This document shows positions 2,455-13,942 of a DNA stretch of 64,000 nt, piece by piece (positions within the stretch are counted from its first letter, which is position 1; each line of letters begins with the position of its first letter). Made by a program: the position numbers and the translations under genes. A model generated the notes under the pieces. It searched no databases, was not told where the DNA came from, and was given only the letters and a program-made list of their open reading frames with translations. Source of the DNA: an uncultured Muribaculaceae bacterium (lineage in GTDB: Bacteria > Bacteroidota > Bacteroidia > Bacteroidales > Muribaculaceae); the NCBI GenBank assembly GCA_910583525.1, contig CAJTXL010000009.1, positions 6,023 to 70,022 on the forward strand, in the 5' to 3' direction.

Positions 2455-5439
2455 TTAGTCCTGTTTTTCGCCGAGTCGGCTGTCTATCATCATGAAAATG
2501 TCGGTTTCGCTGCCGGGGTAGTTGTCGCGCAGGGCTTCGAGGTATTCTTTTGCTTCGAAGTTTTTGCCTTGTGCGGCGTAGATGTCGCTTATTAGGATGA
2601 ATGCTCGAGCGACCCAGTAGCGGTGCGGCGAGCCTGAACGTGTGAGTTTCTGCGCGATTTCGAGCGCTTTTTTGTCTTTTCCGGCGTCGTGGAGTGCATC
2701 GGCGGCTTCGTAGGCACTTTTTGCGCCGAAGAGGTCGGCGGTGTCGGCTGACATTTCGAGCCACATCGCTATGGCGGCGTCGTTGTCGCCGGCATCCTGC
2801 AAAGCGGATGCTTTGGTGAATTTTGCTTCTGTGCCGGCTGCGGCACCTGCCGATGAGGCTATTATTTCGTCGGCGATGTTTCCGGCGAGGGCCATGTCGC
2901 CGATGTCGCGTGCGGTGCGCATTACGCCGAGGCGCGCCTGTGTTGCCGTGGCGGCGTCGGATGCTTTCTGCCTGAGCTGCTGCCACAGGCTGAGGGCGAG
3001 TGGCAGGTCGCCGTTTTTATATGCGTTTTGGGCGAGGATGGCGAGTGCGCGTTCGGCGGCTCGGCTGTCGGGGTATCGGTCGACGATGGCGGATGCGATT
3101 TCATGCGCTTGTGCGGCTTGTCCGTTGCCGGCGGCGTTGTCGAGTAGCATTCCCATGGCGAGGGGTGCGTCGGGCGAGGTGGGGTATTTTTTGACGAATG
3201 CTTCGAGCTGAGCGGTCTCGCCGCGTTTTTCGTAGGCTTTGACGGCGGATTCGTATGCGAGTTCTTCGGCCTCATCGGCGCTGACGGCCGGCGCTTTGTC
3301 GACGCTCGACATGAAGGAGAGGTATTTGTCGGCGTTTCCGGCGTCGGCGTAGATGTTTTTGAGGAGCGCGGCGGCCTGTGCGGCTTCGTCGGATGTGGGA
3401 TAGAGCCGTATGACCGCGCGGTATGCTTCGACGGCTTCGTCGTTGCGGCCCATGTCGAGGAGTGTCATTGCCATCTGCAGATAGCCGCGGCGTCCTTGTG
3501 ATGTCTGTGGGTAGTCGGCGATGAGTTTGCGGTATGTTTCGACAGCGTCGGCGTTGCGGCCGAGGCTGATTTGTGCCTGTGTGGTTTCGAGGAGCGCGTC
3601 GGGCATGAGTGCGGATGAGCCGAAGCTTCGGCGGAATGTGTCGAGGGCGTCGAGTTTGCCTTGATAGTCACGCATGTATCCTTTCATGCGTGCGGATGCG
3701 AGCGTGGCGTAGTCGCCTGCGGCCGGATTTGCCTGATATGCCTGCGAGTAGTATGCGGCGGCTTGGGGGAAGTCGGCTTTTGCGAAGCTTATGTCGCCGA
3801 GGCGGTTGAGGGCGTCGGCTTTGGCGGCTTTGTCGGTGAGCGCTTTCGCTGCCTGTGTGAAGTATTCGGCGGCTTGCCCGGCTTTGTTTTGGCGATATAG
3901 TGAGTATGCGAGGCCGTAGAGTGCGACGGGGCGGTTTGGCGCGTCTTTGGATGCCATCCGGAGATATGCCTGAAACTTGGCTGCGGCATCGTCGTCGAGG
4001 TTTTTGGCCTGTGCGAGGCGTGCCTGCGCGAGTGTGGTTTCGGCGGCTATTGTCGGGCTGTGTCTGCTGAGGGCGGCGGCCTGCGCGAGGTGGCTGTCGG
4101 CTTGGTCGAGGCGGCCCTGGCGGAGCTCTTCGAGGCCGAGGGCGTAGAGCGTGCGCTGTTTGGCCTGCAATATTTTGGGCGATGGCGAGGCGATGAGGTT
4201 GATGCGTGCGAGTGCGCGGCTGTAGTCGTGGTCGGCCATGTATCCGGCGGCGAGGTACGATGCCACGCGGTCGGTGTAGGGGCCTGAGGGGTATAGGCGC
4301 AGGAATTCTTCGAATGTCTCAGCGGCGGAGGCGAAGGGGACGTCGGCGCCGGCGAATTTGGCTACGGCGTAGTTGTAGAAAGCGGCTTCTCTGACGGCCG
4401 GGTCGTGGTCGGCTTTTGCGGCTTTGTCGAAGGCGAGGATTGCGGCTGAGGTGTCGCCGGTTTCCATGAAGCATTGTCCGGCGTAGAGGTATGCCGACTG
4501 GCGGAGTGCGCCTTGGCCCCTCTCGGTGACGGGGATGAAGCGGTATATGGCGTCGTTGTAGCGGCCGGCGTTGAAGTCGGCGATGCCCATGATGTAGAGT
4601 GCCGACGGCATGGGGGTGTCGGCGTTGGCGATGTATCTGCGCAGATAATCGGTTGCGGCGTCGAGGTCGCCTTCGTGGTAGAGGCTCTCGCCTGCGATGC
4701 GGTTCATCTCGGCCTGTACGTGGCGCGGGAGACCGTCGCGGCGAAGCAGTCGTCGTGCTGTGGCGAGTGCGTTGCGGTAGTTGCCTTGGGCGAAGTCGAT
4801 TGAGGCAAGGTAGTAGTCGGTCATGTCGCCGGGTGGCGTGGCTGTGTTTACTGCTTTGAAGCGTTCGCGGGCCCGGTCGTATTTGCCTTCGTCGAAGTCG
4901 AGTTTGCCGAGGTAGAACATGGCTGCCGACCTGAGGGGACGGTATTTTGCGGCTCGTTCGAAGGAGCTTCGTGCGAATGCCGGCTCATGGACGTCTATGG
5001 CGCATATGCCGCGCCGGTATGCCATTTGGGCGGCGTCGGCTGCCGGCATGCCGCTGTAGTATGTCTTTTTGTAGGCTTCGAGGGCTTGGGCATACATGCC
5101 TTGGGCGTAGAGGCTGTCGCCGATGCCTTTTTGCGCGAGGTAGCAGCGGCTGTCGTAGGGGTAGTCGCGGAGGAAGTCTTGGAATGCGTCGGCGCTGTCG
5201 GCGTAGCGTCCGAGCTTCAGAAGCCACATGGCGCGGCGGTAGGCAATGTCGGCACGGGTGGTGGCGTCTGTCGTTCCGTCAATCAGGCGGAGCTGGTCGA
5301 GCGCGCCTTGGTAGTTTTCTTGAGCGGCCATGGCGTCGGCACGGGCGAGGTCGCCGATGTCGGTAGTGGCGTTGAGCTGAGCCATGGCGGAAAGCGAGGC
5401 CAAGGCCAGGAATATGCCGGCAAATATATGTTTTTTCAT
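2455..5439 (-). CDS. Very large periplasmic tetratricopeptide-repeat (TPR) protein
   Basis: The ORF runs 2455..5472. I chose ATG 5439, which gives MKKHIFAGIFLALASLSAMA/Q (a signal peptide with no lipobox Cys). The rest is about 990 aa of Ala/Leu/Tyr-rich 34-residue helical repeats (A..Y..G.Y..A...F pattern repeated many times). Confidence 0.75.
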   Translation of the reverse strand: MKKHIFAGIFLALASLSAMAQLNATTDIGDLARADAMAAQENYQGALDQLRLIDGTTDATTRADIAYRRAMWLLKLGRYADSADAFQDFLRDYPYDSRCYLAQKGIGDSLYAQGMYAQALEAYKKTYYSGMPAADAAQMAYRRGICAIDVHEPAFARSSFERAAKYRPLRSAAMFYLGKLDFDEGKYDRARERFKAVNTATPPGDMTDYYLASIDFAQGNYRNALATARRLLRRDGLPRHVQAEMNRIAGESLYHEGDLDAATDYLRRYIANADTPMPSALYIMGIADFNAGRYNDAIYRFIPVTERGQGALRQSAYLYAGQCFMETGDTSAAILAFDKAAKADHDPAVREAAFYNYAVAKFAGADVPFASAAETFEEFLRLYPSGPYTDRVASYLAAGYMADHDYSRALARINLIASPSPKILQAKQRTLYALGLEELRQGRLDQADSHLAQAAALSRHSPTIAAETTLAQARLAQAKNLDDDAAAKFQAYLRMASKDAPNRPVALYGLAYSLYRQNKAGQAAEYFTQAAKALTDKAAKADALNRLGDISFAKADFPQAAAYYSQAYQANPAAGDYATLASARMKGYMRDYQGKLDALDTFRRSFGSSALMPDALLETTQAQISLGRNADAVETYRKLIADYPQTSQGRRGYLQMAMTLLDMGRNDEAVEAYRAVIRLYPTSDEAAQAAALLKNIYADAGNADKYLSFMSSVDKAPAVSADEAEELAYESAVKAYEKRGETAQLEAFVKKYPTSPDAPLAMGMLLDNAAGNGQAAQAHEIASAIVDRYPDSRAAERALAILAQNAYKNGDLPLALSLWQQLRQKASDAATATQARLGVMRTARDIGDMALAGNIADEIIASSAGAAAGTEAKFTKASALQDAGDNDAAIAMWLEMSADTADLFGAKSAYEAADALHDAGKDKKALEIAQKLTRSGSPHRYWVARAFILISDIYAAQGKNFEAKEYLEALRDNYPGSETDIFMMIDSRLGEKQD

Positions 5440-5469
5440 GTTTTTCTGTCTGAAAGTGTGTTTGAAATG

Positions 5470-5477
5470 CAAAAATA
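5470..5477 (-). promoter_or_regulatory. Candidate Bacteroidetes -7 box (TAttTTTG) for the TPR/barrel operon
   Basis: The reverse complement of caaaaata is TATTTTTG, which matches TAnnTTTG about 30 nt upstream of ATG 5439. Confidence 0.3.
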
Positions 5478-5984
5478 CGGATAAGTAGAGAGCAATGCAA
5501 AATTTATTTGCGCATTGCCGGTTGTCTCTTAAAGGAGATTTAGTGATTCAATCGGTGTAAAAGTTCGCAAATTTTGTGTACATTTGCAGGCCGACTGAAC
5601 ATAGGGCCCCCTGTCGGAGGGTTTTGAGGGAGGGCGGCAAGACATTTAGACAAAGGCGTTTATCAGCGCTTCTGTTCTTGGCATCTTGAAATCTGGCAGT
5701 TTCAAATCGCAGTCAAGGAAGAGGCAACGGTAGATGTCCATGGATATGTAAATCATGTTTGGTGGCGGTTCTTCGCGACGACGGAGCCGACATCGTGCAT
5801 TTGCATATTTGCGTGGGCTCTGCGTTGCTCGTTCTACTGCGACAGGCACATGCCAGAGCCTCAAGATGCAGAACGGGCAATGGTTCGATACCCACGCTTT
5901 TTTTCTTCATTTCCGGCTTGAGGGTATCGGCCGGTCAAATTAAATTTTGAGAGGGTAATATCCTTTCTTGTCAACTAAACCATT

Positions 5985-7895
5985 ATGAAAAGAGTAATTA
6001 TGCTGTTATGTATGGTCTTTGCCTTGTGCGTTGGCGCAATGGCGGCAACGTACACCGAGGGCAATCTACAGTTCTCTGCTGTTTCTGACGGCAAGGTGTC
6101 GGTATCGGGCTATGTCGATGAGCCTGAGGGTGATTTGGAAATCCCTGCGGTAACTTCTCGCGGCGATGCGGTGTGCGCTGTCGAATGTGAGGCTTTTAGT
6201 AATTGCACCGGATTGACTTCGGTGAGTTTCCCTGAATCACTGACTTCGATAGGCGAATATGCTTTCTCCTGGTGCACGGGTCTGACATCTATAGTCTTTC
6301 CTGAATCACTGACTGAAATCGGAGGGGGTGCTTTTGCCTCGTGTCGGGGCGTGACCACATTGAATCTTCCTGAAACATTGGCCAAAATCGGTGATAGTGC
6401 CTTCAGCGGCATGGGCTTGACTTCGTTGTCTCTTCCGAAGTCGCTTGCCGCAATCGGAAATTTTGTTTTCTACGGCTGTGCCGGTTTGACGACGTTGAAT
6501 TTTCCCGAGTCGCTGACTTCAATCGGCGATGATGCGTTCAGGGACTGTGCCGGCTTGACGACGCTGGCTTTTCCGGCGTCGCTGACTTCGATTGGAGCAA
6601 ATGCATTCAGGGGGTGTGCCGGTTTGACGTCGTTGACTTTCCCTGAGTCGCTGACTTCAATCGGAGAATTTGCGTTTGAGGGCTGTGTCGGTCTGACGTC
6701 GTTGAGTTTTCCCGAATCGTTTACTTCAATCGGAAACGCGGTTTTTTCGGGCTGCACGGGTTTGACTTCGTTGCATTTTTCCGAATCTCTGACTTCAATC
6801 GGTGCTTCGACGTTCAGTGGCTGTACGGGTCTTAAGTCGTTGAGCTTGCCAGAGTCGCTGACTTCAATCGGAGATTATGCTTTTCATGGATGCTCAGGCC
6901 TGAGTTCGTTGAAATTACCGGGGGCGTTGAGTGATATCAGAACTTATGCTTTCAGTGATTGCACGGGTTTGACTTCGGTAATATTGCCGACGTCGCTTGG
7001 CTTTTTGAGTGATGGCGTATTTAACAATTGTACGGGCTTGACTTCGGTGGTTTTTCCGAAGTGGCTTTATTCAATAGGGCGGCAAGCTTTCAGCGGATGT
7101 CTTAATTTGAAATCGTATGGAGTGGATGCCGAGAATGGATATTTTACTTCGGTCGACGGGATTCTGTACGACAAGTCCCGTAAGACTATCGTCCTGTATC
7201 CGAATGCTTATGGAAGTCATTTTTCTATTCCTGATGGTGTAGAGGCGATTGGCGAGGCTGCTTTCAGTGGATGTGCGAACTTGACTTCGGTGGCGTTTCC
7301 GGAGTCTCTGACATCAATCGGCGAGGCGGCTTTCTTCGAGTGCACGGGTTTGGCGTCGATGAGCCTGCCCCGGTCTGTCACTGTGATTGAGGCTTCTGTT
7401 TTTCAAGGCTGCACGGGCTTGACGTCGGTTAAGTTTTCTGATGGGCTTGTGTCAATCGGACGTTTGGCTTTTTTGGAATGTTCCGGTCTTGGAGAGGTGT
7501 GTTTCGGAACAAAGCTTGATACAATATCGTTTGGCGCATTTTGGGGATGTACGTCACTTGATAAAGTGACCTGTCTTGCGCCGGAACCACCGGTTACAGA
7601 CAGTCCTTTTGGAGATGATACCTATGGCAAGTGCGAGCTTTATGTGCCGGAGGGTTCTCTTGAGCGATACAAGGAACAGAGTTCCAATTGTTGGTGGCAG
7701 TTTTCGAGTATCAGGGGTCTCGATATGTCTGGTGTCGGCGACCTCGAGACGGGTCGAGACGAGCCTGTGACGGTTTACGGGCTTGACGGTGTAGTGGTTT
7801 TCGATGGTCTTTGCAGCGAATTGCGTTCTGTGTCTCTCCCACGGGGACTCTATATCGTGAAGGCTCCGAACGGTGCTGTTAAACGGGTTTTCTGA
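5985..7895 (+). CDS. BspA-type leucine-rich-repeat surface protein with T9SS C-terminal sorting domain
   Basis: Signal peptide MKRVIMLLCMVFALCVGAMA. About 20 tandem 23-aa units (FPESLTSIG..AF.GC.GLTSL.). The C-terminus VTVYGLDGVVVFDG...LPRGLYIVKAPNGAVKRVF matches the T9SS CTD pattern. Confidence 0.85.
   Translation: MKRVIMLLCMVFALCVGAMAATYTEGNLQFSAVSDGKVSVSGYVDEPEGDLEIPAVTSRGDAVCAVECEAFSNCTGLTSVSFPESLTSIGEYAFSWCTGLTSIVFPESLTEIGGGAFASCRGVTTLNLPETLAKIGDSAFSGMGLTSLSLPKSLAAIGNFVFYGCAGLTTLNFPESLTSIGDDAFRDCAGLTTLAFPASLTSIGANAFRGCAGLTSLTFPESLTSIGEFAFEGCVGLTSLSFPESFTSIGNAVFSGCTGLTSLHFSESLTSIGASTFSGCTGLKSLSLPESLTSIGDYAFHGCSGLSSLKLPGALSDIRTYAFSDCTGLTSVILPTSLGFLSDGVFNNCTGLTSVVFPKWLYSIGRQAFSGCLNLKSYGVDAENGYFTSVDGILYDKSRKTIVLYPNAYGSHFSIPDGVEAIGEAAFSGCANLTSVAFPESLTSIGEAAFFECTGLASMSLPRSVTVIEASVFQGCTGLTSVKFSDGLVSIGRLAFLECSGLGEVCFGTKLDTISFGAFWGCTSLDKVTCLAPEPPVTDSPFGDDTYGKCELYVPEGSLERYKEQSSNCWWQFSSIRGLDMSGVGDLETGRDEPVTVYGLDGVVVFDGLCSELRSVSLPRGLYIVKAPNGAVKRVF
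6165..7485 (+). repeat. Tandem ~69-bp coding repeats (LRR units) inside the LRR gene
   Basis: Repeated DNA strings such as cctgaatcactgacttc.atcgg / gagtcgctgacttcaatcgg recur every ~69 nt. The boundaries are approximate. Confidence 0.7.
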
Positions 7896-7928
7896 GCTGT
7901 TTCATAACCCCGTCGATGCATCATTGAG

Positions 7929-8071
7929 AGAGGCTGTGTCAAAATTGATAATGAAAGGATTTACTTTGATGTATAAGTGCTAATCACCTGTAAATAAGCA
8001 GTATGTCAAAGATGTGTTGCTGTGGGCTATGGGTGTTTTTTTGAAAATTCTACAATTTTGACACAGCCTCT
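7929..8071. repeat. 19-bp perfect inverted repeat flanking a ~105-nt AT-rich spacer between convergent genes
   Basis: agaggctgtgtcaaaattg (7929-7947) is the reverse complement of caattttgacacagcctct (8053-8071). The arms resemble the GC-clamped hairpin terminators common after Bacteroidales genes, but here they are split by an insert. Confidence 0.6.
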
Positions 8072-8105
8072 ACGTTTTGCGGTGTGTTGGAGTGGGATGT
8101 TCTTT

Positions 8106-8306
8106 TTATGTGTCGGGGATGGTTGCGAGTGCTTTTTCGTTGCGTGTCTGTGTGAAAGAGGTGAATGTGTCGAAGATGTCGGCGAGTGCTATTGTAGCGT
8201 TGCGGACTTGTGTGTCGAACATTTCGACGCCTCGTGCGGTGCCGTGTGTGCGCCCCAGGAGAGCGTCACCGACGCCTGATATGTCTTCGAAGAGTTTTAG
8301 CTGCAT
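8106..8306 (-). CDS. C-terminal segment of the phage portal protein (66 aa), in frame with 8307..9416 across a TAG
   Basis: MQLKLFEDISGVGDALLGRT...FDTQVRNATIALADIFDTF. Its ATG (8306-8304) directly follows the TAG at 8309-8307 in the same frame. The sequence reads as the natural continuation of the portal (crown region). Confidence 0.6.
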   Translation of the reverse strand: MQLKLFEDISGVGDALLGRTHGTARGVEMFDTQVRNATIALADIFDTFTSFTQTRNEKALATIPDT

Positions 8307-9416
8307 CTACAGGAGCTGGTATGCGCCGCTGCCCGATGTGTTGGTGATGACTTGCTGCGGAAGTGGGCCTTCGTCGCCGCGGATGGGGATTACGCCGTCG
8401 GAGTGCGCCCACACGCGTGTGATGTCGTCCCATTTGAGATTTTCGACCATCTGTCTCATGGGGAAGAGCAGGACGCCTTTTGCGGATGTTGCCATCATTT
8501 TGTCTATCATGACGATGAGGCGGTTGATGTAGCGCTGCTGGTCGATGACGTCTTCGACGAAGGAGTGGACTTCGCCGTCGGTGAGGGGGTAGAGTTTTAC
8601 GGCGAAGGGGTGGCCTTGGTGGGGATAGGGTGAGTCGAACTCGGACAGGACGGTTCCGTCGGGTGCGAGGTAGCGGCAGTGCCATGCGAAGTCCATGCCG
8701 GTGCTGCCGGGTGCCGTCTCGCGGCAGTCGAATGTCCATACTTCGATTACGCGGCAGCGTGCGGGTGTGGCTGCGCAGAAGAAGTTTTCGGCGTCGGATG
8801 CTTCGCCGAGGCTTATGGCAGGGGCTATGCCGGAGCCGTCGCCGCCTTGAGCATAGAGCTGACGGAGTTCGGCCACGCGTTCGGGCGAGCCTGCGCCGAA
8901 GCGGTTGATGACTTCGGGGAGTGTCATGTCGTGCAGCATGCCGATGAGGTCGATGTCCCATCCTCGCGGGTCTTTGAATGCGTTGACGAAGAAGTCGCGC
9001 GGGTCTACGTTGTCGACCCATACGCCGTAGCCGCCCCAACGGCGTTCGTCAACGATACGCTGGATTGCGCAGCCTGATATGAGGAATTCTTCGAGCAGTC
9101 GGCTGTCGAGTTCGGCGAGGCTGTTGCGTTGGGCGAGAGGCTTGAGATTTTCGTCGTTGTAGACACCGGCTTCGGCTGCCTGAGTGCGGTAGCGGCCCAC
9201 GACGGTCTTTACGAGCTGACGAATGAGGTTGTTCGTTAGAGGCTTTGCGCCGCTTTCTTCGAGGAGGCGGCCTTCGACTATGGTGCGGCCTTTGCTGTCG
9301 GTGACGGTGTCGCACCATTGGTTGCCGTAGGTGTAGTTTTTGTAGCGTTGGCGGCGCGCCCTGAGGTCGGCAGCGGCGCACCATGCCTTGTAGGCTGCTT
9401 CGAGGATGCTGTTCAT
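8307..9416 (-). CDS. Phage portal protein, N-terminal 369 aa, ending at an in-frame amber codon (possible pseudogene or split gene)
   Basis: The real start is MNSILEAAYKAW at ATG 9416-9414; the Arg-rich upstream part of ORF 8307..9788 is an artefact. Portal-like strings are present: YKNYTYGNQW, LTNNLIRQLVKTVVGRY, VIEVWTF, HPFAVKLYPLTDGEVHSFVEDVIDQQRYINRLI. The ATG overlaps the stop of the upstream gene (ATGA). Confidence 0.6.
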   Translation of the reverse strand: MNSILEAAYKAWCAAADLRARRQRYKNYTYGNQWCDTVTDSKGRTIVEGRLLEESGAKPLTNNLIRQLVKTVVGRYRTQAAEAGVYNDENLKPLAQRNSLAELDSRLLEEFLISGCAIQRIVDERRWGGYGVWVDNVDPRDFFVNAFKDPRGWDIDLIGMLHDMTLPEVINRFGAGSPERVAELRQLYAQGGDGSGIAPAISLGEASDAENFFCAATPARCRVIEVWTFDCRETAPGSTGMDFAWHCRYLAPDGTVLSEFDSPYPHQGHPFAVKLYPLTDGEVHSFVEDVIDQQRYINRLIVMIDKMMATSAKGVLLFPMRQMVENLKWDDITRVWAHSDGVIPIRGDEGPLPQQVITNTSGSGAYQLL

Positions 9417-10000
9417 ATGGGTTGTATTGTCGGGGACGGGTCGAGGAGTATGGGGAGTGCGGCTTCGTCGATTGTGTAATAGTCTTCGCCGGGGTCTATT
9501 GCGGCTGTCACGGTAAGGGCCTGAGGGTGTATGCCAACGGCCGGCCATGCGAGGATGTCGGGGGCGGAGCCTGCGACGGCGCCTCGGGTGAATACGGCCA
9601 CGGGGTGTGCGGCTGTGGCGGCTGTGTAGGGGTTCTGTTGGCGCGATATTATTGTGTCGGCTTCGTCGGGCGGCCTTACTTCGACGGCCCGGAGCCATCC
9701 GTTGAGGCGGACGTCGAATATGCGGCGGCACATTGCCGGTGCGGCTATGAGCGCTCCGCCGGTGCCCGGGTCTTCGTTGCGGACGCACGAGACGGTGGCG
9801 GCGATGTTGTCGGCTGCGACGAGGCTGCGGTCGCCGTGGTCGAGGATGTCGAGGTAGCGGCGGCGGAGTTCTGTTTCGAGGACTGCGTCGATGTCGATGC
9901 CGTCGGTGCGCTCGACGGTACAGTCGGCGCGCAAAGGCTCAAGGCCGCCGGCAATTCGGCGGCGCTTGAGCATTTCGGCTTTTGAGAGGGTTATTTTCAT
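9413..10000 (-). CDS. Hypothetical 195-aa protein of the phage head module
   Basis: MKITLSKAEMLKRRR... starts at ATG 10000-9998, inside the longer artefactual ORF 9413..10609. ATGA overlaps occur at both ends (with the capsid stop and the portal start). No family recognised. Confidence 0.6.
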   Translation of the reverse strand: MKITLSKAEMLKRRRIAGGLEPLRADCTVERTDGIDIDAVLETELRRRYLDILDHGDRSLVAADNIAATVSCVRNEDPGTGGALIAAPAMCRRIFDVRLNGWLRAVEVRPPDEADTIISRQQNPYTAATAAHPVAVFTRGAVAGSAPDILAWPAVGIHPQALTVTAAIDPGEDYYTIDEAALPILLDPSPTIQPI

Positions 10001-11286
10001 GCGTTTACGGTTTTGCCGATTACGCGGATGTGGGCGTTGGGGTAGCGCAGGACGAGGCAGGATGCTTCGGTGAGGACTACGGCGTCGGTGTTTCGCTGTC
10101 CCGAGGCGCGTAGGTCGAGCTTCTCGGCCTGGAAGGGCACGTGCACATATTTTGTGAGGTAGTTGGGGTCGAGGACGAAGCCGTCGGCGGCGTGTCCGCA
10201 CTGGTCGAAGACTTCGGAGTGGAGAACGTAGAGCGTGCCGAAGTTCGAGACGAGTTCTTTGAACTCGATGCCCCATTTGACTTTTGTCTCGCCTGCGGCG
10301 ACTACTTTGTTGTACTGCACTTTGGAGAGTGCTTCGACAAGAGCTGTGCCCGCGATGAGGATTTTGCGCTTGGAGCCATTGTTGCCGGTGAATGCTTTGC
10401 TGCACAGTTCGATGAGGTCGGCTTCGCTGAGTGTGTCGAGGGCGAGTTCGACGCTGCGCGGCGCCTGACCCCATATGCCGCCGGTGAAGTAGACGTTTTC
10501 GTTTTTGGCCGGGTCGAAGATTACGGAGCGGTGGCCGAAGAGGAAGTTTTTCTCCATTCCGAGGCGCATGTCGATGATAGCGGCTTCTTCCTGGTCGGAG
10601 AAAGACCAACCGACTTCTTTGCCTGCGATTTTTGCGAGGGTGCTCTGCTCGACCTGCATTTTGAATATCTGGCAGTTGTTCGCGGCTTTTCGTGGCATGG
10701 CGGAGAATTGTGCCGTCTGCACGTCGAGTTCGGTGGCGGCTCGGCCCATGCGCACCAGGCGCGTGCCTTTGGCGAGCTGCGGCAGGGCTATGAACGAGCC
10801 GCCCATGCCGCTTTGGGGCGTTCCGTTGAGTGGCACGACTTCGATGCCGCCGTCCTGCGGACGCCCTATGACGTAGAGCACGAGCGGCCCTGCGGCTGTT
10901 CCGGCCGGCGCGCTACCCTGCACGGCGGGCACGAGGACGGTTTCGGAGATATCGAAGATGTTGTCGGCCGAGGTCTTGATGATGTAGGTCATCAGTCCGT
11001 TGCCTCGGTCGACGCCGTCGTTGGGGCTTGTCGGCTCTGTGACTTCGGCTTCGGTGACTTTGGTGTCGACAGAGTAGTATTCGACGGTCATTGCGGTGGC
11101 CTTGCGTGTGTTGGCGCAGCGCGTGAGCTGGTCGATTGGCGTCGACATGGGGCGCACTTTGACGATGCGGCTGTCGATTGAGTTGCGCAGCAGGCCGGGA
11201 GCGGCCTGTGCGATGTTTTCTGTTGTTGCGGCGGTGCCTGCGATGTGTTTGCCTCCGGCGGTGCCGGCTACGATGTTTTCACTCAT
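9997..11286 (-). CDS. Phage major capsid protein (HK97-fold, SU10/DUF5309-like as far as I can judge)
   Basis: 429 aa. The N-arm AAPGLLRNSIDSRIVKVRPMSTPIDQLTR followed by MTVEYYSVD resembles the N-terminal signature of SU10-type major capsid proteins as I remember it. Size and position (between a scaffold-like gene and the portal) fit. Confidence 0.6.
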   Translation of the reverse strand: MSENIVAGTAGGKHIAGTAATTENIAQAAPGLLRNSIDSRIVKVRPMSTPIDQLTRCANTRKATAMTVEYYSVDTKVTEAEVTEPTSPNDGVDRGNGLMTYIIKTSADNIFDISETVLVPAVQGSAPAGTAAGPLVLYVIGRPQDGGIEVVPLNGTPQSGMGGSFIALPQLAKGTRLVRMGRAATELDVQTAQFSAMPRKAANNCQIFKMQVEQSTLAKIAGKEVGWSFSDQEEAAIIDMRLGMEKNFLFGHRSVIFDPAKNENVYFTGGIWGQAPRSVELALDTLSEADLIELCSKAFTGNNGSKRKILIAGTALVEALSKVQYNKVVAAGETKVKWGIEFKELVSNFGTLYVLHSEVFDQCGHAADGFVLDPNYLTKYVHVPFQAEKLDLRASGQRNTDAVVLTEASCLVLRYPNAHIRVIGKTVNA

Positions 11287-11322
11287 AGTAAATAGTAAGT
11301 AGTTGTAAAAAATGTTTTGGGC

Positions 11323-11673
11323 TTAGAAGCCGTCCCAGAAGTCGGGACGTATGTTTGCGAGGAAAGTGGGGTACGAGCGGTCGTCGCCGTCATTCTGCCG
11401 TTGTGCCTGCGCGGCTGACTGGTACATTGCTATTTCTGGGTGCTCGGCGACGGGAGTCGGGTCGGGAGTCGTCCTGTCGGCTTCTGGCGCCGGTGCCGGT
11501 TCGGGGTCTTTCGGCAGCAAGGTTGCGAGCAGTTCGACGGGGTCGCCTCCTGCGGCGATGGCTGCAAGGACGTGCGCGCACTCGCTGTTGGCGCTTATTG
11601 CTCTGAGCAGTTCGGTGTCGCTGCTGCCGTCGGTGTCGCCGTTGACGGGCGGCGGGGTGGGATTTTCTTCCAT
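11323..11673 (-). CDS. Small acidic Pro-rich protein (116 aa), scaffold-like candidate
   Basis: MEENPTPPPVNGDTDGSSDTELL...RSYPTFLANIRPDFWDGF from ATG 11673-11671, inside the longer ORF 11323..11910. It is acidic and low-complexity, and is the first gene of the head module, 36 nt before the capsid gene. Confidence 0.5.
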   Translation of the reverse strand: MEENPTPPPVNGDTDGSSDTELLRAISANSECAHVLAAIAAGGDPVELLATLLPKDPEPAPAPEADRTTPDPTPVAEHPEIAMYQSAAQAQRQNDGDDRSYPTFLANIRPDFWDGF

Positions 11674-11702
11674 TTTTTTCGATTTTTTTGTGGGTTGTGG
11701 CG

Positions 11703-11710
11703 CAAAGTTA
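11703..11710 (-). promoter_or_regulatory. Candidate -7 box (TAacTTTG) for the phage head module
   Basis: The reverse complement of caaagtta is TAACTTTG, about 30 nt upstream of ATG 11673. Confidence 0.35.
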
Positions 11711-11808
11711 CGGCGGTGCCTGCCGGAGCGTTTGCGGAAAATCTCCGGCGTCGGGAAAAAGGCCGGGGATGCCGGCCGTTTTTTTCTCGGCATGTGAGGA
11801 AAAAATCG

Positions 11809-11816
11809 TAAATTTG
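11809..11816 (+). promoter_or_regulatory. Candidate -7 box (TAaaTTTG) only 4 nt before the DUF1573 ATG (would imply a leaderless mRNA)
   Basis: taaatttg lies at 11809-11816 and the ATG at 11821. Confidence 0.25.
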
Positions 11817-11820
11817 GGGC

Positions 11821-12888
11821 ATGAAACATTTGCTGATTTCTGCAATAGCTGTTCTCGCCGCTTTTTCGGGGGCTGCCGTCGACGATGTGAAGTGGCTTGA
11901 GACGAGCCATAATTTCGGGGCCTTCGACGAAGACCTCGGCCCTGTGACGTGCACGTTCAAGTTTGTGAATACTCTTGACGAGCCGGTGTCGATAGTGGTG
12001 GCGCGTTCGTCGTGCGGCTGCACGTCGCCGGTGTATTCGCGCGACGCCGTCGAGCCGGGCGATACGGCCTCGATTTCGGTGACATATGACCCGGCAGGCC
12101 GCCCGGGGCGTTTTACCAAGTATGTCGGGGTGCAGCTTTCTGCCGGCCCGGCACAGCCGAAGCTTTACATAAAGGGTACGGTGGTGGGTTCGGCCAAGAG
12201 TGTGGCGCGGCGTTTTCCTGTTGACTGCGGCGCCGACATGCAGCTTGCAAAGGGCGTGCTTATGACAGGAGAGGTCGCTAAGGGGCAGCTGCGTACGGTT
12301 TTCCTTGAGGCATATAACCGCTCGACCGACACGATACGTCCACGCATAGAGGGTCTTCCGCCTTATTTAGAGGCTGTGGCGTCGCCCGAGGCTGTTCCGC
12401 CGGGCGAGCAGATGTCGTTTATCTTCTATTTCCACTCGGCACGGTGCGAGCAGTACGGCCTTGTGTGCGACACGGTGTATGTGTGCCGCGACGCAGACAG
12501 TGCGGTGCGCTGTCCGCTGCCGACGGTGGCTATCGTGAGCGAGGATTTCTCGAAGATGACGGCGAAACAGCTGGCAAAGGCTCCGCATTGCCGTCTGTCG
12601 GAAACGAGCCTTGATTTCGGCAGACTGGGCCGGGAGCCGGTATCGATGGAGTGCACCGTCCGCAACACAGGCAAGTCGCCGCTGAAACTGCGGCGTGTAT
12701 ATACTGCCGACGAGGGCGTTGCGGTGTCGGTATCGGCCGACACGGTGAAGCCCGGCAAAGAGGCCGTTCTCACCGTCACGGTAGACCCCCGAAAGTTGCC
12801 GGGGGCATTGCTCAACGCCCGGATTTCAATCGTTACGAACGACCCGGATGCGCCCAACACGACCTTACGGGCGGTCGGGGAGCTGTAG
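11821..12888 (+). CDS. DUF1573 domain-containing protein (multi-domain, secreted)
   Basis: Signal peptide MKHLLISAIAVLAAFSGAA, then HNFGAFDEDLGPVTCTFKFVNTLDEPVSIVVARSSCGCTSPVYS...PGDTASISVTYDP, which is the DUF1573 signature (SCGCT). A second copy-like module lies at the C-terminus (LDFGRL...MECTVRNTGKSPLKL). Confidence 0.75.
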   Translation: MKHLLISAIAVLAAFSGAAVDDVKWLETSHNFGAFDEDLGPVTCTFKFVNTLDEPVSIVVARSSCGCTSPVYSRDAVEPGDTASISVTYDPAGRPGRFTKYVGVQLSAGPAQPKLYIKGTVVGSAKSVARRFPVDCGADMQLAKGVLMTGEVAKGQLRTVFLEAYNRSTDTIRPRIEGLPPYLEAVASPEAVPPGEQMSFIFYFHSARCEQYGLVCDTVYVCRDADSAVRCPLPTVAIVSEDFSKMTAKQLAKAPHCRLSETSLDFGRLGREPVSMECTVRNTGKSPLKLRRVYTADEGVAVSVSADTVKPGKEAVLTVTVDPRKLPGALLNARISIVTNDPDAPNTTLRAVGEL

Positions 12889-13060
12889 ATAGCGTTTCTG
12901 CGCCCCTATCGCGCTACGCTGTAGCTTTGCGTTGTCAGGACAGGTTTGCCCGGGTCGCGCGCCGCCTAAAGGGGCGCTTGCCCGGGCCTATTGCAGTTTG
13001 CGCCACTCTGTGGCGTTTGCCCCGAATGGGGCGATGTGTAATATGGTAGCGACGTCTACA
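12889..13060. repeat. Cluster of short GC-rich hairpins with TTTGC-initiated units (REP-like) between convergent genes
   Basis: Units: tttgcccgggtcgcgc..., cttgcccgggcc..., tttgcgccactctgtggcg (stem cgcca/tggcg), tttgccccgaatggggc (stem gcccc/ggggc). There is a direct repeat ttgcccggg at about 12947 and 12979. Confidence 0.45.
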
Positions 13061-13116
13061 TTTGTTATGCGCTGAAATTTCGACCTGAGCCAAAACTGAC
13101 TCTTATTGTTGAACTT

Positions 13117-13650
13117 TTATTCAATGAAATTTTTGAGATCAAAGAACATGAGGCGAGTTTCTTCTGCTTTATCTAAATCTGAGAAGAAGCGGAAGCCGTT
13201 CTTTTCATAGAATGGTGCGGCAGAAACAAGAGCATCGACTGTTATGAAACGACAACCGAGCCGTTTGACGGTTGCGAACGCGTATTTGATATTGTCTAAA
13301 ACAAATGTTCCAACGCCAGTTCCAGTATATCTTTCATTCACTGCAAGTCTGCCAATTTTCACCGCCGGGTAATTTCTACGGCGTTTGGGATTGGGGATGT
13401 TGCGGTTCAGCCTGTTCCAAACATTCTTTTCATCTGGATTGAATGAAATTTTGTCGGCGAGCAGGCTAAAATATGCCACGGTCACATTTTTTTGTAAATC
13501 CTCAAGGAGATATGTTACAGCCATCAGCTCTTTCTGAAAATGCTTTGCATCATCAAAAAGAAAACCGTTCAAATCATCATTTGTGCATCTGAACGGTTTA
13601 ATTATTGTGTCATCGGAGAGTTGAATTTGAGTCAGTTTCGAGAAGTCCAT
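13117..13650 (-). CDS. GNAT-family acetyltransferase, TacT/KacT-like toxin candidate
   Basis: 177 aa; ...YPAVKIGRLAVNERYTGTGVGTFVL...GCRFITVDALVSAAPFYEKNGFRFF (acetyl-CoA-binding G.G.G motif). It is AT-rich and starts 1 nt after the stop of a small upstream ORF. Confidence 0.65.
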   Translation of the reverse strand: MDFSKLTQIQLSDDTIIKPFRCTNDDLNGFLFDDAKHFQKELMAVTYLLEDLQKNVTVAYFSLLADKISFNPDEKNVWNRLNRNIPNPKRRRNYPAVKIGRLAVNERYTGTGVGTFVLDNIKYAFATVKRLGCRFITVDALVSAAPFYEKNGFRFFSDLDKAEETRLMFFDLKNFIE

Positions 13651-13651
13651 A

Positions 13652-13810
13652 TTACCATTGGAAATTGCTTATGGATTTCATGACTTCGTAGGCCTTGCGC
13701 GCCCTTTCTTTCTCCTCTTTTGACACCGGCATTGGCTGCGAAATCATTTTTTCGAAGCGCTGTGCATCCTTACCGAATAACTCAGGGGTTTCTTTAATTG
13801 GCCGTGCCAT
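13652..13810 (-). CDS. Small putative antitoxin (52 aa) paired with the GNAT gene
   Basis: MARPIKETPELFGKDAQRFEKMISQPMPVSKEEKERARKAYEVMKSISNFQW from ATG 13810-13808, inside ORF 13652..13891. MARPIKETP-type small proteins commonly precede toxin genes in Bacteroidales (from memory). Confidence 0.5.
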   Translation of the reverse strand: MARPIKETPELFGKDAQRFEKMISQPMPVSKEEKERARKAYEVMKSISNFQW

Positions 13811-13942
13811 TGTTGGAAAGTTTTTTTGATTTGTAATTACAAAGATACAACAAAAATCTGATATAGAGGGTTGAAAAAATGGTTTTTGCAACTTCGCGTG
13901 GTAAATGGGAGCTTGCGCTTGTCTGTAATTGGTGCTCCGTAC

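Follow-up and report, generated by a model that had tools for sequence, protein, structure and literature searches.

A phage-derived head operon conserved across Muribaculaceae as a candidate part of a split gene-transfer-agent-like system

The DNA analyzed here is a 64,000-nucleotide stretch from an uncultured Muribaculaceae bacterium (assembly GCA_910583525.1, contig CAJTXL010000009.1, positions 6,023 to 70,022 of the forward strand), referred to below as the window. Between its positions 8106 and 11673 lies a block of four genes for phage-type head proteins, namely a scaffold-like protein, a major capsid protein, a small protein that we call X, and a portal. In our opinion, this block is probably a head-and-neck operon and constitutes one locus of a split, vertically inherited, phage-derived system that resembles a gene transfer agent (GTA). 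The first-pass annotation of this DNA had taken the block for an orphan module; that description no longer fits, because a cognate operon for a large terminase (TerL) exists elsewhere in related genomes.

The four-gene head operon

All four co-directional genes announced by the first-pass annotation are present on the minus strand. In the order of transcription, they encode the scaffold-like protein ORF116 (positions 11323–11673; 116 amino acids, aa; assigned from its position and a conserved C-terminal motif), the major capsid protein, which has the HK97 fold and belongs to the SU10_MCP/DUF5309 family (9997–11286; 429 aa), X (9413–10000; 195 aa), and the portal. The portal is annotated as 369 + 66 aa because of an in-frame TAG at 8307–8309: the first 369 codons end at this TAG (8307–9416), and a continuation of 66 codons follows in frame, with an ATG directly after the stop (8106–8306). 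The ATGA overlaps described earlier at 10000–9997 and 9416–9413 can both be read in the sequence, and through them X is translationally coupled to both of its neighbours, the capsid and the portal.

The HK97-type capsid proposed at first sight is confirmed by profile searches. Pfam SU10_MCP (PF17236) matches the protein at 8.3e-51, with a score of 173.6 bits vs a gathering cutoff of 24.1, the match to phrog_26635 reaches 1.3e-85, and, in comparison with the PDB, the capsid profile matches the solved phage capsid VP1. The structural model of the capsid is of low confidence (pLDDT 57); for this reason only the ranking of its Foldseek matches was used, the top ones being the phage capsids VP1, crAss001, and P1. 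The protein shares 38–39% identity with the capsids of BF1-TP2, BKO1-TP3, and BS-TP4 (PQ571263, PQ571269, and PQ571277), all three Bacteroides podophages, and is shorter than these phage homologues (429 vs 478–480 aa).

Analogously, the portal assignment is supported by matches to P22_portal (Pfam PF16510; 1.1e-8, 34.5 bits vs a gathering cutoff of 26.1) and to phrog_156 (7.7e-27). The first portal piece covers positions 14–374 of the 681 positions of phrog_156; the 66-aa piece extends the profile match over positions 397–459 (E 4e-4) and corresponds in alignments to the C-terminal part of orthologous portals that are intact. Since the window portal spans only positions 14–459 of the profile, the C-terminal third of phage portals is missing from it. 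Its identity to the 622–657-aa portals of the three Bacteroides phages is 35–36%.

The comparisons for X, which were based on an AlphaFold model, Foldseek, and hhalign, predict a podovirus ring/adaptor (head-to-tail) protein. The model (pLDDT 87.5) is composed of helices and a beta-sandwich, and its best Foldseek matches are ring chains of the phicrAss001 tail barrel (7qoj_E/F; E 3e-4) and, in BFVD, structural proteins of crAss-like phages or podoviruses (E 4.5e-6). The ring-type structural matches, with TM values of 0.46–0.56, are significant but moderate, and entries of the T7-type tail tubular protein A gave Foldseek scores that are non-significant only. The ring proteins of crAss001, likewise formed by helices and a beta-sandwich, are dodecamers stacked on the portal clip, and other podoviruses are said to possess one such ring (PMC10172136). 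The profile of X also matches gp54 of phage BF1-TP2, encoded two genes past the capsid (hhalign probability 85%, E 7e-6), and the two proteins share the motif QxNxYTxxTxxxPVxV. The X family comprises 617 clusters at 50% identity.

ORF116 is mostly rich in Pro, Glu, and Ala, looks disordered, and ends in the conserved C-terminal motif ...SYPTFLANIRPDFWDGF; profile searches, with Pfam and PHROGs among them, revealed no family match and no enzyme domain. Its exact sequence and variants of it occur on >200 contigs. In most related loci, an ORF of about 50 to 230 aa at the same position ends in [SC]PxFL(A/S)(N/H)(I/L)RPxFWD, and the more distant versions additionally carry the motif EAExRGYxRGRNExIE. 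This second motif weakly matches (hhalign E 0.002–0.007, probability 6–15%) a 263–283-aa protein encoded just upstream of the capsid in phages BS-TP4 and BF1-TP2, in which the motif stands at an equal distance from a similar C-terminal ending. Because the profile scores are only weak, the homology of ORF116 with the phage scaffold rests mainly on position and on motif placement. The earlier guess that the 116-aa protein is scaffold-like has thus gained support from its position, the conserved C-terminal motif, and the weak profile similarity, and ORF116 can be regarded as a putative shortened scaffold whose C-terminal peptide would bind the capsid protein, the sequence support for this being weak and the positional support good.

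Conservation, the separate terminase operon, and phage ancestry

Among GTDB species representatives, 80, almost all of them labelled as Muribaculaceae, have a capsid homologue with 53–89% identity. These 80 species-level loci, plus four further contexts, make up the set of relatives compared here, and the majority of the genomes are metagenome-assembled genomes (MAGs). Wherever a locus is long enough to judge, the order of capsid, X, and portal is kept; the capsid ORF is intact in 80 of the 80 loci, and most of the ~71 evaluable portals are single ORFs. The dN/dS ratios of the closest pairs, calculated by the Nei-Gojobori method, are 0.05–0.20 for the capsid, 0.09–0.24 for the portal, and 0.12–0.21 for X, values that are rough because dS is saturated for most pairs. 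The pairwise distances of the three proteins correlate with each other (r about 0.76–0.78), and the GC content of the module follows that of its flanks (r = 0.83 for 63 loci spanning a range of 45–68%). Judged from these sequence comparisons, the block looks vertically inherited under purifying selection across the host clade. Each lineage has a different set of ordinary housekeeping genes on the flanks. Clustering of all ORFs within ±10 kb of the ~80 loci revealed no recurrent gene families other than a divergent DUF1573 gene and the small upstream ORF, and no integrase, tail, lysis, or replication genes are attached to the block within that distance in the window or in these loci; in the window, the ±10 kb around the head operon hold only host genes.

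These data bear on two of the origins suggested by the first-pass annotation, a decayed prophage stump and a satellite remnant; in either case, the block would be a neutral remnant, left over from the edge of an old prophage or from a capsid-forming satellite and still in the course of decay. The nonsense codon of the window portal, the portals of several other species that are frameshifted, disrupted by insertion sequences (IS), or deleted, and the fact that no integrase, tail, or lysis genes are left would be in line with such decay. Nevertheless, both the prophage stump and the mobile satellite were rejected, because the same four-gene order and intact ORFs are conserved in ~80 species, with capsids diverged to as little as 53% identity, dN/dS is far below 1 in all three large genes, the composition has been ameliorated to that of each host, and integrase and replication genes are lacking. 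The conserved promoter, described below, and the conserved C-terminal motif of the scaffold likewise argue against a remnant. The complete prophage that, if present at this site in close relatives, would have marked the block as its edge is not seen in any of them. The remnant reading is thus already contradicted at the level of the family, and we consider it highly improbable. The base composition of the window block had been judged by eye to match the host; the block does resemble the adjacent GC-rich host genes and differs from the AT-rich islets, while its GC content of 0.606 departs from the 0.536 of the 8-kb flanks.

Two peculiarities of individual lineages should be mentioned. Two contigs of MAG CAMWMR01 (L028 and L029; L numbers designate the loci compared) carry near-identical copies of capsid, X, and portal, which represent either a duplication or an artefact of assembly or binning. 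In one subclade, the portal is directly followed by a gene of 142 aa (L062, positions 13372–13800; same position in L069, L077, L055, L072, L042, and L046). This gene, which is not present in the window, weakly matches a winged-helix family (Penicillinase_R) and might encode a regulator or a small terminase.

The second locus of the proposed system was recognized when the related loci were searched with proteins of the related phages. A TerL gene lies 5–9 kb from the capsid gene in L062, L069, and L046, in each case on a single contig. A coupled gene lies ahead of it in L062 and L069, encoding a protein of about 820–850 aa that belongs to no recognisable family and is here termed p800; the L046 contig ends inside TerL, with the upstream gene outside view. 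Within Muribaculaceae, TerL homologues of about 615 aa (50–82% identity) are distributed as widely as the capsid, and the two-gene p800-TerL operon was found in six further loci (L091–L096) between unrelated housekeeping genes, including the ftsZ cluster, SusC/D, and dnaX with pta-ackA. Near the operon in these six loci, only host genes and no replication, integration, or lysogeny genes are seen. A TerL locus (L091) and a capsid locus (L014) belong to one and the same MAG, CAJUJB01, a co-occurrence that, as in any MAG, depends on binning. The first-pass statement that there is no terminase thus holds for the 64-kb window and for ±10 kb in most relatives, and fails for the lineage.

The Muribaculaceae TerLs look functional by their sequences. 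Their profile matches T4 gp17 at 2.7e-16 and also phrog_2, their Walker A-like, Walker B, coupling, and nuclease residues are invariant relative to phage TerLs, and the dN/dS of the closest pair is 0.10. The genes situated between TerL and the capsid in L062, L069, and L046 (a nuclease/phosphatase, an ion channel, an outer-membrane protein, a racemase, and regulators) are host-like and were not counted as parts of the system. Genes for aspartate-semialdehyde dehydrogenase and a Na+/H+ exchanger are located just downstream of the portal in L004 (13313–16453) and just upstream of p800-TerL in L091 (3387–6574); this recurrence of the same host gene pair hints that the two operons were formerly closer together.

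In the collection of 50,697 phage records searched, BF1-TP2, BKO1-TP3, and BS-TP4 are the only phages with a similar capsid and portal (35–39% identity), and they are also the best phage relatives of TerL (36–41% identity). That capsid, portal, and TerL share the same three best phage relatives indicates one phage lineage of origin. Like the Muribaculaceae block, these phages have a scaffold-like gene followed by the capsid, one or more small genes, and an X-like gene; unlike the block, they are complete phages of 64–68 kb with giant virion proteins and with lysis and regulatory genes, and all their homologous proteins are longer than the Muribaculaceae counterparts. In accordance with the earlier remark that the block reverses the usual gene order, the portal of these nearest phages is encoded beyond the terminase gene, several kb from the capsid and not beside X. 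The gene annotated in GenBank as "tail spike protein" in BF1-TP2 (L003, 7921–9948) and BS-TP4 (L090, 7856–9952) appears to encode the large terminase, being homologous to the Muribaculaceae TerLs and having the same ATPase and nuclease motifs. A pattern scan of IMG/VR with capsid peptides specific for the Muribaculaceae clade, which could miss distant viral relatives, returned no relative.

The two operons may also be linked by their regulation. A -7 promoter box of the Bacteroidetes type, TAACTTTG, was read directly from the minus strand at 11703–11710; it sits 30 nt upstream of the ORF116 ATG, with an A-rich leader after it. Of 70 related loci, 64 have a TAnnTTTG box, in most cases TAACTTTGCA, ahead of the small ORF or the capsid gene, and this box is usually the sole copy within 800 nt. 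This type of motif is generic in the genome, with 50 copies in the window; therefore, its recurrence is evidence of a conserved host-type promoter and not of a special signal. In both L062 and L069, the head operon and the TerL operon share a near-identical element (GTGTTAAA, a short hairpin, and TTTTG) at an equal distance from the -7 box, which suggests co-regulation. A search for a regulon by means of a loose regular expression for the upstream architecture was dropped, as it matched mostly generic AT-rich promoters. The 147 bp that separate ORF116 from the divergent DUF1573 gene in the window also contain a G+C-rich hairpin, GGCCGGGGATGCCGGCC, at 11761–11777, on the upstream side of the -7 box; near this position, a hairpin with another sequence is found in related loci.

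A third suggestion of the first-pass annotation was a domesticated module that forms particles or compartments. Its compartment sense corresponds to an encapsulin-type nanocompartment, in which an HK97-fold cytoplasmic shell without DNA would be loaded with the small upstream protein by means of the C-terminal peptide. The HK97 fold of the shell protein, the layout of the upstream protein, whose disordered linker and short conserved C-terminal motif recall a cargo-loading peptide, and the lack of adjacent phage genes agree with such a compartment. However, a portal and a portal-binding ring protein are always part of the operon, and encapsulins are not known to have either. Moreover, the lineage retains what appears to be a catalytically intact terminase from the same phage source, the presumed cargo has no enzyme domain and is phage-scaffold-like in position and, weakly, in sequence, and the capsid belongs to the phage family PF17236, which is not an encapsulin family. 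We regard a nanocompartment as very unlikely; of the domesticated module, it is the particle sense that is supported.

The reduced size of the head proteins raises a different alternative, anti-phage interference. Trimmed capsid, scaffold, adaptor, and portal proteins, perhaps together with the terminase, could co-assemble with the parts of infecting relatives or titrate them and in this way poison morphogenesis or packaging. Endogenous retroviral gag or env genes interfere similarly in mammals. The Muribaculaceae proteins are indeed shorter than their phage homologues (portal, ~430 vs 622–657 aa; scaffold, 116 vs 263–283 aa; capsid, 429 vs 478–480 aa), the related podophages infect Bacteroides, a genus of the sister family, and selection is strong despite the fact that no tail or lysis genes are in view. 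On the other hand, PADLOC gave no match to known defence models, and a decoy would need neither a terminase with every ATPase and nuclease residue conserved nor a complete set of coupled assembly genes. An identity of 36–41% to the only known phage relatives makes co-assembly doubtful, and neither the phage collection nor the IMG/VR pattern scan yielded a Muribaculaceae phage with corresponding parts. Interference is, in our judgement, unlikely.

The interrupted portal and the surroundings of the operon

Besides the saturation of dS, the dependence on binning, and the generic character of the promoter box, several observations weigh against a GTA-like system. Neither TerL nor p800 was found within this 64-kb window. 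The p800 protein has no match in Pfam, PHROGs, NCBIfam, PADLOC, PDB sequences, or a tblastn search of the 50,697 phage records, and hhalign comparison of p800 with the phage proteins encoded downstream of the X homologue likewise gave nothing. No genes for a tail fibre, nozzle, small terminase, holin, or endolysin were recognised near either operon. Portals are broken in a minority of other species, by frameshifts (L004/L012 and L031), IS insertions (L052), or deletion (L054), which implies that the system is dispensable. As for the window itself, the truncated 369-aa portal product is found on 77 contigs, and an exact-match search for an intact allele, in which the TAG was replaced by a codon for Q, E, S, W, Y, K, or L, revealed none.

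Two of the broken loci can be described more closely. In L052 (11732–17007; OX620685.1, the chromosome of an isolate), the portal is split by ~4 kb carrying three DDE transposase genes, which makes it a natural knockout in a cultured Muribaculaceae strain. In L054 (11272–13700), the capsid is intact, while X and the portal are gone and unrelated genes, including one for a BACON-domain protein, stand in their place.

The window TAG is codon 370 of 436 in a protein that, in most species, is encoded by a single ORF of about 425–465 aa. The corresponding column of the orthologues is variable (Q, S, or E, with CAG as the commonest codon), so that readthrough with any residue would be tolerated, and the ATG that immediately follows the TAG means that reinitiation could yield a portal in two pieces. 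Reassignment of TAG, as in some Bacteroidota phages, was rejected: there is a single TAG, no orthologue has TAG in this column, and the composition of the genes is host-like. In the species of the window, the nonsense codon appears to be common in the population, and two consequences seem about equally likely, namely that the system may be impaired or that the portal may be made in two pieces.

It is quite possible, although we stop short of calling it probable, that the system is real at the level of the family and that the window holds a recently dead copy, inactivated by the nonsense mutation in the portal before the other genes were damaged. The position of the TAG in a protein that is otherwise mostly uninterrupted, the 77 contigs with the truncated product, the absence of an intact allele among the seven single-codon reversions, and the independent loss of the portal in other species speak for lineage-specific decay. 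Scaffold, capsid, and X, in contrast, are intact, identical or near-identical sequences recur in >100 samples, and the sequence TAGATG, with its in-frame ATG immediately past the stop, would be compatible with continued production of the C-terminal piece.

The flanks of the block in the window are host genes on both sides. The gaps of 210 and 147 bp given in the first-pass annotation are correct, with a convergent leucine-rich repeat (LRR) gene ending at 7895 and the divergent DUF1573 gene starting at 11821. The latter (11821–12888, plus strand) encodes a DUF1573/Ig-like secreted protein of 355 aa (Pfam DUF1573, 5.9e-40). It is adjacent and divergent in 33 of ~70 loci, whereas all other flanking genes vary; judging from this gene order, the DUF1573 protein is a persistent neighbour, possibly associated with the module.

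Several further elements of the window lie outside the operon. In the gap between the ends of the portal gene and the convergent LRR gene lies a perfect 18-bp inverted repeat, GAGGCTGTGTCAAAATTG (7930–7947 and 8053–8070, enclosing 105 nt). This repeat, which folds much better than shuffled sequences (z = -4.85) and has neither an Rfam match nor a second copy in the window, is possibly a small insertion of the MITE type or else a bidirectional terminator. Rfam has no match anywhere in positions 5400–13200. At 13117–13891, an AT-rich islet (GC 0.41) contains a gene for a GNAT acetyltransferase of 177 aa and, just ahead of this gene, a small ORF; the two look like a toxin-antitoxin pair. The GC skew is positive in each 1-kb bin of the window (1–64000), and the cumulative skew climbs monotonically; thus, the whole window belongs to one replichore.

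A proposed particle and its comparison with known systems

The following sequence of events would account for the data. The ancestor of Muribaculaceae would have acquired the block from a Bacteroides-type podophage, and the family would have kept it as ordinary chromosomal genes. The head operon would be transcribed from the host-type promoter TAACTTTG. The shortened scaffold would dock on the capsid protein via its conserved C-terminal peptide, the ring/adaptor protein X would sit on the portal clip, and scaffold, HK97-fold capsid, shortened portal, and ring would together give a portal-bearing procapsid with a neck. The packaging motor, a T4 gp17-type large terminase encoded together with the ~800-aa protein in the second operon found elsewhere in related genomes, would then fill the procapsid with DNA. 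The likely output would be a small, tail-poor, DNA-packaging particle, in other words a GTA-like viriform serving DNA transfer. We infer the steps of assembly, DNA packaging, release, and transfer from the gene content; that the shorter proteins go with a smaller head is speculation. The roles of tail or nozzle, fibre, small terminase, and lysis may be fulfilled by genes at other loci or partly by the 800-aa protein, or else the system may do something different.

In full-text literature searches, neither this module nor any GTA of Muribaculaceae or Bacteroidota was found to have been described. A short-tailed GTA, FpGTA, has been described in Faecalibacterium (PMC12946183). In virus-like particle (VLP) fractions from mouse gut, an unexplained uniform coverage of Muribaculaceae (Duncaniella) contigs has been reported (bioRxiv 10.64898/2026.07.08.737213). 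We treat both reports as leads only. With these reports in mind, we tentatively suggest, as a possibility that we rate somewhat below an even chance, that Muribaculaceae, a dominant family in the gut of mice and humans, possess a minimal podophage-derived GTA-like system, divided between the two operons, that packages host DNA into small capsids built with the shortened scaffold and the trimmed portal, the first of its kind in Bacteroidota, and a candidate source of the coverage seen in VLP fractions.

If particles carrying DNA are made, a major gut family would have a built-in means of gene exchange that surveys of prophages, plasmids, and conjugative elements do not count. If the reading is true, GTA-like domestication would be known from one more phylum and from a podophage ancestor as well. 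The recognisable genes are very few (those for scaffold, capsid, ring, portal, and terminase, plus one for an unknown protein), which makes the system attractive for dissecting the requirements of capsid assembly and packaging. The proposal can be tested directly, since the locus is present in cultured isolates (intact, for example, in Muribaculaceae Isolate-002 NCI, L085), among which the one with the IS-disrupted portal is a possible natural negative control. Even if the function proves to be a different one, phage interference for example, a capsid-portal-terminase set under selection throughout a family calls for an explanation.

The comparison with known systems sets the Muribaculaceae block apart from two of them. 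With encapsulins it shares an HK97-fold shell gene that resides in the host chromosome without a surrounding prophage and a small neighbour with a conserved C-terminal peptide; it differs from them in having a portal and a ring/adaptor protein, a shell of a phage Pfam family, a terminase in the lineage, and a partner protein devoid of an enzymatic cargo domain. Capsid-forming satellites (cf-PICI) likewise encode a capsid, a portal, and head-tail connectors of their own while lacking tail genes. As mobile islands, they also contain an integrase, modules for regulation and for replication, a small terminase, and, in most cases, a protease. The Muribaculaceae block, in contrast, has no integrase or recurrent family within ±10 kb (att sites were not searched for) and is fixed across species between housekeeping genes.

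The closest parallels are with GTAs, among them RcGTA of Rhodobacter, BaGTA of Bartonella, VSH-1, Dd1, VTA, and FpGTA. The Muribaculaceae system differs from these in its independent origin from a Bacteroides-type podophage, in its parts, which include a capsid of the SU10_MCP family, a P22-type portal, a crAss-like ring protein, and a T4-type TerL, and in its host phylum, Bacteroidota; it is known from six candidate genes alone, with no tail, small terminase, or lysis genes recognised. Like the GTAs, it consists of phage-derived head and packaging genes without genes for replication, integration, or lysogeny, and these genes are split over more than one chromosomal locus and have putative host-type promoters. 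As with the GTAs, the inheritance of the Muribaculaceae genes looks vertical across a whole bacterial family and appears to have been maintained by purifying selection.

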